Shown here: positions 37,687 to 42,483 of the stretch, in pieces | Position numbering within the stretch: position 1 is the stretch's first letter | Layout: every line of letters begins with the position of its first letter | IMG/VR virus record: IMGVR_UViG_3300011560_000001 | Coordinates: 160,001-224,000 of that record | Reading direction: 5' to 3' (one strand) | Length of the DNA stretch: 64,000 nucleotides | Source: a virus | Lineage: Duplodnaviria; Caudoviricetes | Program-made: the position numbers and the translations under genes | Notes under the pieces: generated by a model | Told to the model about the DNA's origin: nothing | The model's database searches: none | What the model saw: the letters and a program-made list of their open reading frames with translations, nothing else

Positions 37687-39752
37687 AAATCACAACAGTA
37701 GCAGACTACCTGAAACTTATTGATACGATCCTTGAAGCTGATTACTATTACCATGTTAAAGCGGAACCGAAATACACCGATGAAGAATACGATAACCTGG
37801 TGAAAACGATACGGGAATATGAAGCGCAGCATCCTGATCAGGTTTCACCTAACAGCCCAACCCGTCGTGTAGGCACACCGGTTGACGGTTTTGAGACCGT
37901 GAAGCATCCGTCTCCGATGATGTCTTTGGATAACCTGTTCAGTGAAGAAGAGTTGCGGAATTGGACGGAGTCCATCGCAAAAACCTTAGGGGTCGCAGAA
38001 GACACGCTCGAATATTTGATCGAACCCAAATACGATGGATTAGCGATCGCGATTCATTACGAGGATGGTTTGTTGCAACGTGCGGTAACCCGTGGGGACG
38101 GTGTTCAGGGCGAAGATGTTACGTCGAATATCCGTACGGTAATGGGTGTCTTTCCACAATTGAGAATGGGGGAATCAACACCGCAGAAAATCGAAGTTCG
38201 TGGTGAAGTGTTGATGCCGCACTACGCCTTTGAACTCTTGAACACAGAACTCGTTGCAAACAATGAAAAACCGTACGTAAATCCGCGTAACGCGGCATCA
38301 GGTACGTTACGACGTTTGGATCCGCAAACCGTCGCAAAACGTCGTTTGTTATTCTGTCCCTACGATGTTTTCGTGGATGGTGATGACACCTACACGTTTG
38401 CGACGCAGGGATCAAAAATGGGGTTTGTTGCCGCGTTAGGGCTAGGTCTATATAACGAATCGTATATCGCCACGGGGACAGAAGAGTTGATTGTGGTGTA
38501 TCGTGATATGCTTACATGGCGTGAGAAGCGCTTGTTTGATATTGACGGCATGGTAATAAAACTGAATGATGTTGCGATGCAGGAGAAGCTCGGCGCAACG
38601 TCTCGTGCACCACGCTGGGCACGAGCATGGAAATTCCCCGCGCAGGAAAAAGCCACCCGGTTACTTGATGTTGATTTTCAGGTCGGTCGAACAGGAAGCA
38701 TCACACCGGTGGCTCGCGTTGAACCCGTGTTCGTTGGGGGTACAACGATAAGCAACATCACGTTGCACAACGAAGCCGAAATAAATCGGTTAGGTGTATG
38801 TGTTGGCGATGATGTTGTTATTCGTCGCGCTGGCGATGTTATTCCTCAAATCGTAAGTGTGCGTCCCGGAGAGGAAAGAAAAGAAATCATTTTTCCAACC
38901 CATTGCCCAACCTGCGGGACGGCATTAACGAAAAAGGAAAATGAAGCGCGTTGGCGTTGTCCTGCAACCGGAACTTGTCCTGACCAAGCGGTAGCGCGTC
39001 TTATTCACTGGGTGAGTCGCGACGTCATGGATATCGAAGGTGTTGGTGAACGCTTCCTGGAACAGGTCTACAACTGTGGGTTGGTGCAATCTGCGGTTGA
39101 TCTCTATCTGTTAACTCGTGAGCAGGTTAGCCAACTGGAAGGGTTTACGGATTATAGCGCCTTCAAGGTTATCGACGCTATTCAGAAATCAAAAGAGACT
39201 ACGTTAGCACGTTTCATCTACGGGTTAGGTATTCTTACAGTAGGTAAAAGCACAGCGCGCGATCTTGCCAACGCGTTTAAGACGGTGGATAGCTTTTTAG
39301 CTGCTGATAAAGAAAGCTTACTTGCCGTTGAAGGTATCGGTGAGATCACAGCCGATCAGATCCTAACGTACATCTACGATAAAGCAAATCGCGGATATAT
39401 CTTCGATTTGTTGTACGATGTCGGTGTAGCGCCAGCTCCAGTTAAGGAACGCGAAATGAATCGGTTACCGTTATTAGATACGCGAGTCGTTATCACGGGA
39501 AGTTTCAACAACATCGATAGAAACCAACTCGCCACGCGTTTAGCGACCATGGGAGCCACAATCACAAGCGGTGTAAGTAAAAACACAACGGTTCTTGTCT
39601 GTGGAAGTAATCCCGGTAGTAAACTCGCGAAAGCTGAAGCGTTGGGGATTCCTGTTATCCGAGACTGGGATGTAACAGATAGCGAAGAAGAAAGTATCGG
39701 TATTTTGATTTCGATGATTGATAAGGTTAAGGAGAATAGAAAAGATGGGTAA
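37683..39752 (+). CDS. ligA: NAD-dependent DNA ligase
   Basis: YY, D..YD, EPKYDG (KxDG), [36 protein letters not shown], Zn finger, HhH, C-terminal BRCT. Confidence 0.97.
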
Positions 39753-40065
39753 ATGTTGGACGGATAAAGAAGATGAAGCGTTACTGCTTATTCTTAGCAC
39801 GTCACCAAAAGCAAGTTATAAAGAAGTAGCACGTTCCATGAATCGAACACCGTGTTCTATTCGCGCGCGTTACATCAGGTTGAGGAAACGACGCGGTGAT
39901 CTACCGCCTCGCGGGGGAGCTTACACACCAGAAGAAAGGGTTAGGATTGCTATGCTTGCAAAGAAACATACCCTAAAAGAAATTGCTGAAATAATGAATC
40001 GTAGCGTACACGCCATCCGGTGTTATTGTTTTCGAAACAAGATACCGCTTAAAGTAAGACGTTGA
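39745..40065 (+). CDS. Myb/SANT-like tandem HTH protein 1 (2 repeats)
   Basis: [10 protein letters not shown]...[14 protein letters not shown]; YTPEE...[12 protein letters not shown]. Confidence 0.75.
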
Positions 40066-40077
40066 TGGGGTGGTACT

Positions 40078-40557
40078 ATGGTCAAGGACTGGACACCCGA
40101 AGAAGATGCGATGTTGATTACCCTGTACCGAAACGGTATACCGATGCAAGAGATTGCGGAACGGCTTGGTCGAACAGAAGGTTCGGTTCAAGGTCGAATT
40201 AACCGTAATCGCAAGCGCTGGAAACTCGTGTCGCGTCATCGCTATTGTTGCTTCGAAGAACGCGTGATGTTAGCCGATTATCTCAAGACGCACAGCGTGA
40301 AAGAAGCCGCGGTAATGTTCAATCGTAGCGTGGACGCAATCGCTAAACTCTGCTACCGTTACGGTATTGTTGCTTGCAAAGCGCAACGTCGAGAGATGAT
40401 TTATCACCGAATACACGCGCTTAGAAAAGAGAACAGAACCTGGGAGAGAATACAGAATATCATCAATAACGAATTTAACACCCATTACACGTTAAGTGGT
40501 GTTCATACACTCTACTACACTCAAGCATTAAAAACGCGTAGAACAGGAGAAATCTAG
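40078..40557 (+). CDS. Myb/SANT-like tandem HTH protein 2 (3 modules)
   Basis: WTPEEDAMLITLY...IAERLGRTEGSV; second repeat NRSVDAI; third W..I...IN.EF...YT. Confidence 0.8.
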   Translation: MVKDWTPEEDAMLITLYRNGIPMQEIAERLGRTEGSVQGRINRNRKRWKLVSRHRYCCFEERVMLADYLKTHSVKEAAVMFNRSVDAIAKLCYRYGIVACKAQRREMIYHRIHALRKENRTWERIQNIINNEFNTHYTLSGVHTLYYTQALKTRRTGEI

Positions 40558-40559: not shown

Positions 40560-41063
40560 GTGAAACCTCCAGTACGACGATGGAATCGTAAGGATGATGA
40601 ACAGTTGCTGGAATTGTACTATCGTCACCCGAAATTAAAAATCCGTGAAATCGCAGAAATCATGGAAACAACGTACGGTGCAATTAAATCGAGGTTGATG
40701 TACTTAAACGTCGAACGCCGTAAACCGCATAAACGTTTCAGTGTCGATGAGTTGGAACATATCAGACTACACTGTAAGCACAAAAGTTACAAACAGCTCG
40801 CACGCGATTTAAACAGAGATCCAAACAGTATTCGAACAATAGCACACCGCCACGGCTTCAAGCGGTTAAGCGAGGATGATACTAAGATCTTCATAGCCTT
40901 CGTTGATGCATTGTTAGAAGAAACGCAGGATTGGTACCATATTGCTGAACGGGTTAATGCGCATTTTGGCATAACACGGACGAAGCAAGCTGTTTATCAG
41001 CGTTGGTGGCATCATAGAAAGAAAAGAGGGATACAAGATGGGACGACCTCGGCCGTGGCGTAA
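40560..41063 (+). CDS. Myb/SANT-like tandem HTH protein 3 (3 modules)
   Basis: WNRKDDEQLLELY; FSVDELEHI...LARDLNR; W..IA..VN..FG...T. Confidence 0.75.
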   Translation: MKPPVRRWNRKDDEQLLELYYRHPKLKIREIAEIMETTYGAIKSRLMYLNVERRKPHKRFSVDELEHIRLHCKHKSYKQLARDLNRDPNSIRTIAHRHGFKRLSEDDTKIFIAFVDALLEETQDWYHIAERVNAHFGITRTKQAVYQRWWHHRKKRGIQDGTTSAVA

Positions 41064-41541
41064 CGATGAGTTAAAAGATGTTACACACATGTACTTGAAC
41101 ACGTCGCTGACGATTGATGAAATCGCACAACGGACAGGACGAACATACGCCAGCATCGACGCGTGTCTGGGGCGTTTGGGAATACGTCAACGCCAGAAGC
41201 ATCGACCGTATACGGAAGAAGAACGTGCGTACATCAAGTCCGTAATCAAACAAAAATCGCTGCGTGAGATCGCGTACGATTTAAACCGCTCGTATGACTC
41301 GGTTCGTCAGTTTATACGGCTTAATGGAATTCGTCGTGCGTTAACCAAGCAAGAACGGGAAGCGATTATCGCGTTTATCGCGGAACGACTTAACGTCACC
41401 CAAAATTGGAATATTATCACATACGACGTTGTTGTTAAATTTGGGATTACAACGAATAAACATGCGTTGTATCAACGTTGGTGTTATTACACGAAAAACA
41501 AAGGAGTTGCCCATGCGCAAATACCGCCGCTGGACAGATGA
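41038..41541 (+). CDS. Myb/SANT-like tandem HTH protein 4 (3 modules)
   Basis: WRNDELK...IAQRTGRT..SI; YTEEERAYI...IAYDLNRS; QNW..I...V..KFG.T...ALYQRW. Confidence 0.75.
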   Translation: MGRPRPWRNDELKDVTHMYLNTSLTIDEIAQRTGRTYASIDACLGRLGIRQRQKHRPYTEEERAYIKSVIKQKSLREIAYDLNRSYDSVRQFIRLNGIRRALTKQEREAIIAFIAERLNVTQNWNIITYDVVVKFGITTNKHALYQRWCYYTKNKGVAHAQIPPLDR

Positions 41542-42043
41542 GGAACTCTCACGCCTTGAGAGTTACGCGGATCAGATACCCAGACCACCGGTTAGTGATT
41601 TGGCTACTGTATTTCAACGCACAGAAAGCGCGATTAAGAATAAGTTATACGTATTGTTCCCTTCGTCAAGAACCAATGAGGCATATACGAACAACGAGAT
41701 TTCCTATATTCGCGACAATATCCACAGATACTCGGTTAAACAACTGTCAAATCATCTTGGCCGATCGAGAGCGAGTGTCGCCTCCGTAATACGACGCCAT
41801 AAGCTACGACGATACGATCCTGGTGAATGGTGCAAAATTTCAGACCGTATCACGACACTTCGACATGAAGGGGTTAGCTGGAGAGAAGTTGCTCGCATTA
41901 TCAATGTCGAGTTCAAACGGGAGTACCATCACACACATCTTTGTCAGCGTTACTATTATAACACACGTGGTAAAAAATGGCAGCAGGTAAAGAATACACA
42001 ACAACCGAAATCGCATTCATACGCCGAAACGCTGGCGTCATGA
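41513..42043 (+). CDS. Myb/SANT-like tandem HTH protein 5 (3 modules)
   Basis: AAGGAG RBS at 41513; RWTDEEL..L; YTNNEISYI...LGRSRASV; SWREVA.IIN.EF. Confidence 0.75.
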   Translation: MRKYRRWTDEELSRLESYADQIPRPPVSDLATVFQRTESAIKNKLYVLFPSSRTNEAYTNNEISYIRDNIHRYSVKQLSNHLGRSRASVASVIRRHKLRRYDPGEWCKISDRITTLRHEGVSWREVARIINVEFKREYHHTHLCQRYYYNTRGKKWQQVKNTQQPKSHSYAETLAS

Positions 42044-42483
42044 CATCGAAAGAGATCGGTGAAGCGTTAGGGCGGAGTCAGAGAGCAATTAGCGCGATCG
42101 CTTCAATGCTTAACATTAAACTGAGTCATCGTAATCGGAACGATATCTTATCGCGGGTTGTCCATTTACGTGACGGCGAGAAGCGCCGATGGCGGGAGAT
42201 CATTACTATCATTCAGGATGAGTTCGGCATTACGTATTCGGAATCGGGGTTGCAGCGCGGATACCAGCGCGTGAAGCTCGTAACAATAAAGAATACCGAT
42301 CCTACACGTCTTCGGATGTTGAATGAAATCCATCGTTATCGGCAATACGATAAACTTCCGTGGAAAGAGGTGCAAAAACGTATCGAGGTACGTTACAACA
42401 AACTTTATCAAATCACAACACTTTGTCAAATGTACCGACGTCATCGTAATCGACTGTTAGGTAATGAAGGAATTTTAGCATGA
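41977..42483 (+). CDS. Myb/SANT-like tandem HTH protein 6 (1 Myb-like + 2 third-type modules)
   Basis: YTTTEIAFI...IGEALGRS..AI; RWREI..IIQDEFG..Y; PWKEVQ..I...Y. Confidence 0.7.
   Translation: MAAGKEYTTTEIAFIRRNAGVMTSKEIGEALGRSQRAISAIASMLNIKLSHRNRNDILSRVVHLRDGEKRRWREIITIIQDEFGITYSESGLQRGYQRVKLVTIKNTDPTRLRMLNEIHRYRQYDKLPWKEVQKRIEVRYNKLYQITTLCQMYRRHRNRLLGNEGILA

Follow-up and report, generated by a model that had tools for sequence, protein, structure and literature searches.

What does a bacteriophage gain from six consecutive genes for helix-turn-helix (HTH) proteins, the first of which begins inside the end of its DNA ligase gene? We address this question for a 64,000-nucleotide stretch (hereafter the window) that covers positions 160,001 to 224,000 of the IMG/VR virus record IMGVR_UViG_3300011560_000001, a record of 237.5 kb that is estimated to be 99% complete. 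Between window positions 39000 and 43500 the sequence has 92.8% nucleotide identity with Escherichia phage vB_EcoM_Goslar, and the six open reading frames (ORFs) of the array pair one to one with Goslar gp119-gp114, one of which is named 'SANT/Myb domain-containing protein' in RefSeq and five 'hypothetical'. Goslar is a nucleus-forming jumbo phage of E. coli, and little is known about what regulates gene expression and the handling of DNA in phages that build a nucleus. We find that the six proteins belong to a kind already known through protein D5 of phage T5, that they very probably bind double-stranded DNA (dsDNA) and read it through two or three tethered HTH modules, and that the first five genes form a block with two deeply divergent versions, which recombination carries from one phage backbone to another.

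The array is as compact as the initial annotation had described it: six consecutive plus-strand ORFs extend from the ligase stop region at 39745 to 42483, and both their coordinates and their sizes (106-176 amino acids, aa) proved exact. The ATG of ORF1 lies within the 3' end of the ligase gene, with an overlap of 8 nucleotides (nt); from ORF1 to ORF6 the genes are then spaced by +12, +2, -26, -29 and -67 nt. The last 4 nt of ORF6 are shared with the GNAT acetyltransferase gene that comes next. Between the six ORFs and their Goslar orthologues the ratio of nonsynonymous to synonymous substitution rates (dN/dS) ranges from 0.05 to 0.23 and hence resembles that of the ligase (0.09) and of the GNAT gene (0.09); judged by these ratios, all six are functional genes under purifying selection. 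By profile comparison they are also true paralogues: a profile made from any five copies recovers the sixth (E <= 2.7e-15 at Z = 1e6 for every copy), and the six-copy profile gave no further match at E <= 0.01 in the 237.5-kb genome.

The array comprises 17 modules over its six genes, of an A type (A1 and A2) and a B type, in the arrangements 2+0, 2+1 (four times) and 1+2 that had been read from the sequence at first; the alignments and an AlphaFold2 model of ORF3 with three separate bundles confirm them. In this model, which was built from 15 sequences and reached a predicted local distance difference test score (pLDDT) of 84.6, three-helix bundles are formed by residues 10-48, 62-98 and 105-159, and the low predicted template modelling score of 0.46 fits independent modules on a string. 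The B module modelled alone (pLDDT 82) is likewise a three-helix bundle, with longer helices; thus, the concern that the modules might not fold as three-helix HTHs was dispelled for each module of ORF3 and for B by itself. Since the A and B profiles resemble each other across all three helices (probability 63%, E 7e-5), B is probably an A-type module that has diverged and has a longer turn. The proteins are all strongly basic, with isoelectric points of 9.8-10.5 and net charges of +12 to +16.

Their Myb/SANT-like character, also proposed at the outset, is borne out by the Pfam, profile and structural matches as well as by the modelled fold. ORF1 exceeds the Pfam cut-offs for Myb_DNA-binding (32.7 bits, cut-off 24.4) and Myb_DNA-bind_6 (35.5 bits, cut-off 22.9), ORF3 exceeds a Myb cut-off marginally (24.9 versus 22.9 bits), and ORF2, ORF4, ORF5 and ORF6 stay below. 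Sigma70_r4_2 is also above its cut-off in ORF2 (38.3 bits) and ORF3 (28.6 bits), and HTH_23 and HTH_28 are among the further Pfam matches of the array; sigma regions 2 and 3 found no match in the six ORFs, with NCBIfam sigma models scoring 16-22 bits against cut-offs of 43-212. Among solved structures, the profile matches the sequence of Cbp2 best (2lvs; both A modules, E 1e-10) and that of c-Myb next best (E 7.6e-7). In structural comparisons, A2 matches the DNA-binding domain of GcrA (Z 8.3, root-mean-square deviation 1.5, 47 of 49 residues) and Tc3 (Z 7.4), A1 matches c-Myb R2 (Z 6.9, root-mean-square deviation 2.5, 51 residues), and the whole ORF3 model ranks beside c-Myb R1R2R3, SNAPc4, Reb1, Tc3, Pax6 and DUX4; Foldseek searches of the PDB with the ORF3 and B-only models returned no match at E <= 0.001. 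VIA-align placed the B module with the HTH of the G20c small terminase, TnpE, GT-1 and the SANT domain of DMAP1, all at Z <= 7.1 and of the generic tri-helical HTH kind, and no Pfam family exceeded its cut-off when the B modules were scanned alone. The initial comparison of B with fungal Clr5 did not hold, as the sole Clr5 match, with E 0.012 and 16.2 bits (cut-off 22.3), involves residues 15-48 of ORF3, which form an A module; Clr5 (PF14420) was rejected for B, the seven B modules alone giving no match to it at E <= 10. Together, the matches in structure and sequence place the modules in the tri-helical HTH class at large; they are not to be taken as family membership.

The putative recognition helices do differ from copy to copy, as had been noticed. 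Between paralogues, helix 3 is identical at 23% (A1), 21% (A2) and 19% (B) of positions, and between orthologues in the two versions of the array at 58%, 64% and 54%, respectively, all from small counts; helix 3 is thereby the best-conserved element between versions and among the least conserved between paralogues. Because helix 3 varies between copies yet is best kept between orthologues, the DNA preference is probably a different one in each of the six proteins.

Family searches connect these proteins to phage T5. All six match PHROG 323 ('transcriptional regulator, D5-like'), a family with no curated cut-off, at E values from 1.2e-10 to 5.4e-20. The archetype of this family, T5 D5 (T5.118, 255 aa; phrog_323 E 1.2e-71), is itself a chain of HTH modules, and hhalign aligns the A-module profile of the array with D5 at a probability of 82% (E 1e-5) over 97 columns, that is, over two modules. 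According to its annotation in the T5 record, D5 binds DNA, is required for replication and late transcription and is involved in early shut-off. The gene order agrees as well, for the T5 D5 gene lies directly behind ligA and ligB (L014 5365-8078) and overlaps the end of ligB by 8 nt, just as ORF1 overlaps the ligase gene here; a D5-like gene adjoins a ligase gene in both lineages that carry such a gene (n = 2 lineages). In a preprint of 2026, D5 is reported to be an HTH protein whose expression by itself is toxic to E. coli, and to bind the multicopy single-stranded DNA (msDNA) of a retron and trigger a type IX retron, with escape mutants mapping to D5 (bioRxiv 10.64898/2026.07.11.737809). 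The reservation that the array might already be characterised in relatives applies at the level of the family, through T5 D5, and does not apply to the Goslar array itself, which is new to study.

We propose that in each protein two or three three-helix HTH modules, independent of one another, are strung together by short basic linkers, with helix 3 of each module lying in the major groove of double-stranded DNA. With every module so placed, one protein would therefore read a composite site of about 10-25 bp, in the manner of c-Myb R2R3, of the bipartite domains of Tc3 and Pax, and of Cbp1/Cbp2. The array genes leave no room for promoters of their own and are probably co-transcribed with the replication ligase; sigma-70 promoter-like sites are not commoner in the array than in shuffled sequence, and a terminator search inside it gave no convincing candidate. 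By analogy with D5, the array proteins would most likely act on phage DNA, in the timing of transcription and/or in replication. That all six are dsDNA binders of this tethered-module kind we hold to be very probable; that their binding is sequence-specific and regulates phage DNA transactions in a D5-like way is, in our estimation, an even chance.

Several observations weigh against this D5-like role. The B module shows no similarity to D5 (hhalign probability 0.3%), and the phrog_323 model is promiscuous for HTH proteins, with matches in 12 of the 14 control cellular genomes at E <= 0.001, for which reason we regard the link to D5 as remote. A general linkage of ligase and D5 in ligase-carrying phages was not found: no phrog_323 gene was detected in eight others (2050HW, RSL2, pEa_SNUABM_48, C-ZP2022, KPN8, pTD1, D6 and MT835528). 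The block of ORF1-ORF5 is swapped between phages whose genes otherwise differ, which is awkward for regulators of sites scattered over a genome, unless these sites lie in the cassette or in host sequences, or the specificity is loose. Moreover, the array was not detected (A2 profile, E <= 0.01) in PhiKZ, 201phi2-1, SPN3US, PCH45 and RAY, by the same kind of search that recovered all copies in the genome of the window and in Goslar. In the literature searched, we found no paper that names Goslar together with gp114-gp118, and these genes do not occur in the Goslar papers that were searched.

The absence from the five other nucleus-forming phages also bears on the notion, contained in the initial annotation, that the array serves the phage nucleus: a core phage-nucleus function is rejected (none of five), and a role tied to the nucleus is not supported. 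Given that the array is missing from these five phages and from the eight ligase-carrying ones, its function would be an accessory one.

The relatives further reveal how the array has changed. Its copy number is six in 12 genomes or contigs (the window, Goslar, eight contigs of the same lineage, and the contigs L010 and L011) and five in L009, from which the first gene has been precisely deleted. Beyond a single 57-nt stretch at 70%, there are no nucleotide-level repeats in the array; the paralogues are 17-42% identical in amino acids, and orthologues pair one to one across the lineages. Since nucleotide repeats are lacking and the paralogues have diverged so far, the duplications, as read from these sequences, are old events that took place before the lineages separated. 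The idea of expansion by gene-accordion duplication, offered at first, is contradicted by these same features and by the stable copy number.

ORF1-ORF5 form a variable cassette of which two deeply divergent versions exist, type I in the window and Goslar and type II in L009 and L010. The first gene of type II encodes 152 aa and includes a B module, whereas ORF1 of the window (106 aa) has none. Between lineages, dN is 0.44-0.62 for ORF1, ORF3, ORF4 and ORF5 and 0.08-0.11 for the ligase, GNAT and ORF6; dS is saturated everywhere between the cassette types, so that dN/dS between them is uninformative. In the comparison of the window with L009, the flanks are 86-90% identical in nucleotides, similarity ends at the ligase stop (39748) and resumes at codon 6 of ORF6 (41992), and the only parts of the block that align in between are ORF2 and the beginning of ORF3 (72%). 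In the comparison of L009 with L010, the 3' two-thirds of the ligase gene, a 235-aa gene that follows it and ORF2-ORF5 are 98-100% identical, while identity is 65-85% downstream of the ORF5/ORF6 border and about 71% further upstream. Because the identities of block and flanks are thus incongruent, we conclude from the alignments that recombination in the conserved flanks transfers the ORF1-ORF5 versions from one Goslar-like backbone to another.

One could go further and speculate that ORF1-ORF5 constitute an exchangeable specificity cassette, namely five DNA readers with private targets, present in at least two ancient and mutually unalignable versions and swapped as a unit via the ligase and ORF6/GNAT flanks; we consider this rather unlikely. 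If it were true, the block would be comparable to the immunity regions of lambdoid phages, and it would decide a trait that differs among co-circulating Goslar-like phages, possibly the exclusion of, or competition with, co-infecting relatives, or the escape from host systems that sense D5-like proteins. The two-version cassette is in any case a natural experiment, in which the same phage backbone carries different sets of DNA readers.

The 235-aa gene between ligase and array has no Pfam match. It is present in Goslar (gp120; L001 3743-4450), L010 (5848-6555) and L009 (6317-7024) and absent from the window, where the ligase and ORF1 meet directly (39745/39752 junction), from L011 and from eight further contigs, which makes it a clean presence/absence polymorphism.

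If the targets were not phage DNA, what else could the proteins bind? Early in infection and outside the phage nucleus, they may bind the E. coli chromosome or its transcription apparatus, for example via HTHs that resemble sigma region 4, and thereby silence or redirect functions of the host. The toxicity reported for T5 D5 alone (bioRxiv 10.64898/2026.07.11.737809), the Sigma70_r4_2 scores of ORF2 and ORF3 and the restriction of the array to the Goslar lineage as an accessory would all agree with host targets, and an exchange of cassettes without matching changes in the rest of the genome would be easier to understand. However, neither sigma regions 2 and 3 nor anti-sigma features were found with Pfam and NCBIfam, and the genes, like D5, sit inside a replication-gene operon; we therefore regard host targeting as unlikely. 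Alternatively, the proteins might bind or mimic nucleic-acid parts of host defences, or be sensed by them, with versions being exchanged to escape. Such an arms race would be in line with the retron interaction and the escape mutants of D5 described in the same preprint, with the high dN of ORF1, ORF3, ORF4 and ORF5 relative to ligase, GNAT and ORF6, with the recombinational exchange of the block, and with the presence or absence of the adjoining 235-aa gene and the deletion of one copy in L009. Yet purifying selection within a cassette type is clear, helix 3 is relatively conserved between the two types, the saturation of dS makes accelerated evolution indistinguishable from old alleles, and no defence or anti-defence family was matched, PADLOC not having been searched; this explanation seems quite improbable to us.

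The strongly basic nature of the proteins suggests still another role, in which abundant binders of low specificity coat the replicating phage DNA as a kind of phage 'chromatin'. The very high net charge, the modules on basic linkers, the D5 family match with the ligase linkage, and the tolerance of cassette exchange would suit an architectural function, and so would the classical description of D5, in the literature of 1979-1983, as a cooperative dsDNA binder. Six diverged copies with recognition helices that are copy-specific but conserved between orthologues speak instead for distinct specificities, and the nearest structural analogues (Myb, Tc3, Pax, Cbp1/2 and GcrA) are sequence-specific readers, so that we would give this role little credence. 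Finally, the genes could be remnants of the DNA-targeting domains of homing endonucleases, or free-standing relatives of these domains, that persist as selfish debris or as site-protection factors. A1-A2 indeed matches the N-terminal parts of three families annotated as HNH endonucleases, phrog_1891 (E 1.6e-7), phrog_8446 (E 6.5e-8) and phrog_7545, poly-HTH relatives occur on mobile elements, and the 235-aa gene beside the array is gained and lost as a unit; but neither the six genes nor the stretches between them contain a nuclease domain or the remains of one, purifying selection acts on all six genes, each relative keeps them in synteny, and they lie in one orientation, translationally coupled, inside an operon. 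Hence, a homing origin of this kind is very improbable. We continue to prefer sequence-specific readers of dsDNA that regulate the transcription timing and/or replication of the phage.

The array does not stand for a new type of system. Tethered HTH modules form a family that is widespread in phages and mobile elements, and the array is a case in which this family has expanded within one lineage. Searched against 1.84 billion proteins, the six-gene profile retrieved 14,701 cluster representatives with E <= 1e-3, of which 2,803 reached E <= 1e-10; the top matches are mostly 300-900 aa long and repeat the A1-A2 unit 4-10 times. One of them (P0007, 807 aa) is fused to a ResIII/Helicase_C helicase, another stands on a phage-like contig, and a further one, 'SANT/Myb-like', comes from a metagenome-assembled genome of Propionibacteriaceae. 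Judging by these matches, mobile elements of prokaryotes commonly carry Myb-like HTH repeats in tandem. The general statement that phages usually carry isolated HTH genes, from which the initial annotation had set out, has to be given up in view of the multi-HTH protein D5, of the 14,701 representatives and of the Myb expansions described in jumbo phages (PMC7824862). The B module, for its part, was found only in Goslar-like phages: its profile retrieved no more than 19 clusters, every one of them 137-176 aa in length and in keeping with array proteins of such phages. A tblastn search of 50,697 phage records with ORF5 found Goslar only, as did the search for relatives in IMG/VR.

A separate observation concerns a 110-kb metagenome contig (L012), in which the region 4450-10376 holds a 791-aa protein with about seven A-type HTH repeats beside a serine recombinase, Mob_Pre and TnpV; given these neighbours, the protein looks like cargo of a transposon-like element.

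The features of the locus are collected in Table 1. For ORF6 we adopt the start at 41977, since the region that it adds (41977-42039; L001 6686-6748 in Goslar) encodes the first helix of the A2 module and this helix is kept in the second lineage; in RefSeq, Goslar gp114 begins 21 codons later (148 aa versus 168 aa).

Table 1. Ligase, array and right flank in the window, with the amino acid identity of each product between the window and L010; dN/dS values refer to Goslar orthologues.
Feature	Coordinates	Strand	Description	Basis	Identity to L010
Ligase	37683..39752	+	Nicotinamide adenine dinucleotide (NAD)-dependent DNA ligase, left conserved flank of the cassette	Pfam ligase domains in orthologues; 93% aa identity to Goslar gp121	86%
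ORF1	39745..40065	+	106 aa, A1-A2 (2+0)	Goslar gp119 orthologue; phrog_323 E 5.4e-20; dN/dS 0.18	58%
ORF2	40078..40557	+	159 aa, A1-A2-B	Goslar gp118 orthologue; phrog_323 E 1.5e-17; dN/dS 0.14	73%
ORF3	40560..41063	+	167 aa, GTG start, A1-A2-B	Goslar gp117 orthologue; phrog_323 E 3.3e-14; dN/dS 0.06	47%
ORF4	41038..41541	+	167 aa, A1-A2-B	Goslar gp116 orthologue; phrog_323 E 4.1e-15; dN/dS 0.23	37%
ORF5	41513..42043	+	176 aa, A1-A2-B and C-terminal tail overlapping ORF6	Goslar gp115 orthologue; phrog_323 E 1.5e-19 (profile positions 92-251); dN/dS 0.15	49%
ORF6	41977..42483	+	168 aa, A2-B-B (1+2), conserved right end of the array	Goslar gp114 orthologue; phrog_323 E 1.2e-10	89%
GNAT	42480..43013	+	GNAT acetyltransferase, right conserved flank	Pfam Acetyltransf_1 E 3.7e-15; syntenic in all relatives examined	82%
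Variable cassette	39745..41991	+	ORF1-ORF5, two deeply divergent versions	Nucleotide comparison of window, L009 and L010	

On the 3' side of the array (42480-44139), the GNAT gene is followed by genes for a 141-aa protein without Pfam match and for a protein that weakly resembles class I S-adenosylmethionine-dependent methyltransferases, all of its Pfam scores being below cut-off; these three genes are syntenic in the relatives, and no tie among them was found other than a common orientation and close packing. A Pfam scan of the ORF at 44150-44836 gave no match at E <= 0.01. Upstream of the ligase operon, L010 alone, among L009, L010, L011 and the window, has two adjacent ORFs (1697-2522; 169 and 113 aa), and since both match MethyltransfD12 (Dam-like), they look like one split or frameshifted methyltransferase gene.

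As Goslar is the E. coli model of nucleus-forming phages, the six DNA-binding candidates are approachable with CRISPRi-ART, localisation of green fluorescent protein fusions and DAP-seq; an RNA-seq study of Goslar is already in print (10.1101/2023.09.20.558163). The link to D5 supplies a starting hypothesis, control of replication and late transcription, and it also points to the reported retron interaction.

Set beside known systems, the array proteins share with Cbp2 and Cbp1, which bind archaeal CRISPR DNA repeats, a small size and a chain of two (Cbp2) or three (Cbp1) tri-helical HTH modules. In the Cbp proteins, too, the modules are joined by basic linkers. Cbp1 (NF040595) scores 22.6 bits with ORF3 and 23.9 bits with ORF4 across all three modules, against a cut-off of 140 bits, so these ORFs are not members and the likeness is one of architecture only; moreover, the Cbp proteins are crenarchaeal, whereas the array is borne by a phage and has no CRISPR context. 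With Myb/SANT proteins (c-Myb R1R2R3; PF00249, PF13921) the array modules have in common the W-T-x-E-E opening of helix 1, the tri-helical fold and the tandem arrangement. They keep, however, only one of the three regularly spaced tryptophans, the first, which is invariant in A1 and replaced by tyrosine, phenylalanine or cysteine in A2, and the second and third core positions are aliphatic, so that the aromatic core of Myb is not found. Most modules score equally well or better with sigma-70 region 4, HTH_23 or HTH_38 than with Myb, and they are of the general tri-helical HTH class, not of Myb proper. GcrA (PDB 5yiu; PF07750) provides the best single-module structural match, to A2, and likewise has an N-terminal W-T-x-E motif, but common helical arrangements also reach Z values near 8, the best Pfam score is 15.8 bits (ORF2) against a cut-off of 26.9, and the array lacks the C-terminal sigma-binding region of GcrA.

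Among phages, jumbo phages like Bacillus phage G show a lineage-specific multiplication of genes for Myb-type HTH (RsfA-like) transcription factors (Iyer et al. 2021, PMC7824862); this expansion, which we set beside the array by its description only, concerns a different phage group, host phylum and HTH subfamily. The closest parallel is T5 D5, which is basic, consists of tandem HTH modules only, belongs to the same PHROG, adjoins an NAD-dependent ligase gene with the same 8-nt overlap, and comes from a virulent enterobacterial phage as well. T5 nevertheless has one gene with about four modules in place of six genes with 17, D5 has no counterpart of the B module, the similarity is remote, and the T5 ligase is split and 31% identical to the ligase here. 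The roles known for D5 itself, in replication, in late transcription and in the triggering of retrons, may by analogy extend to the proteins of the array.

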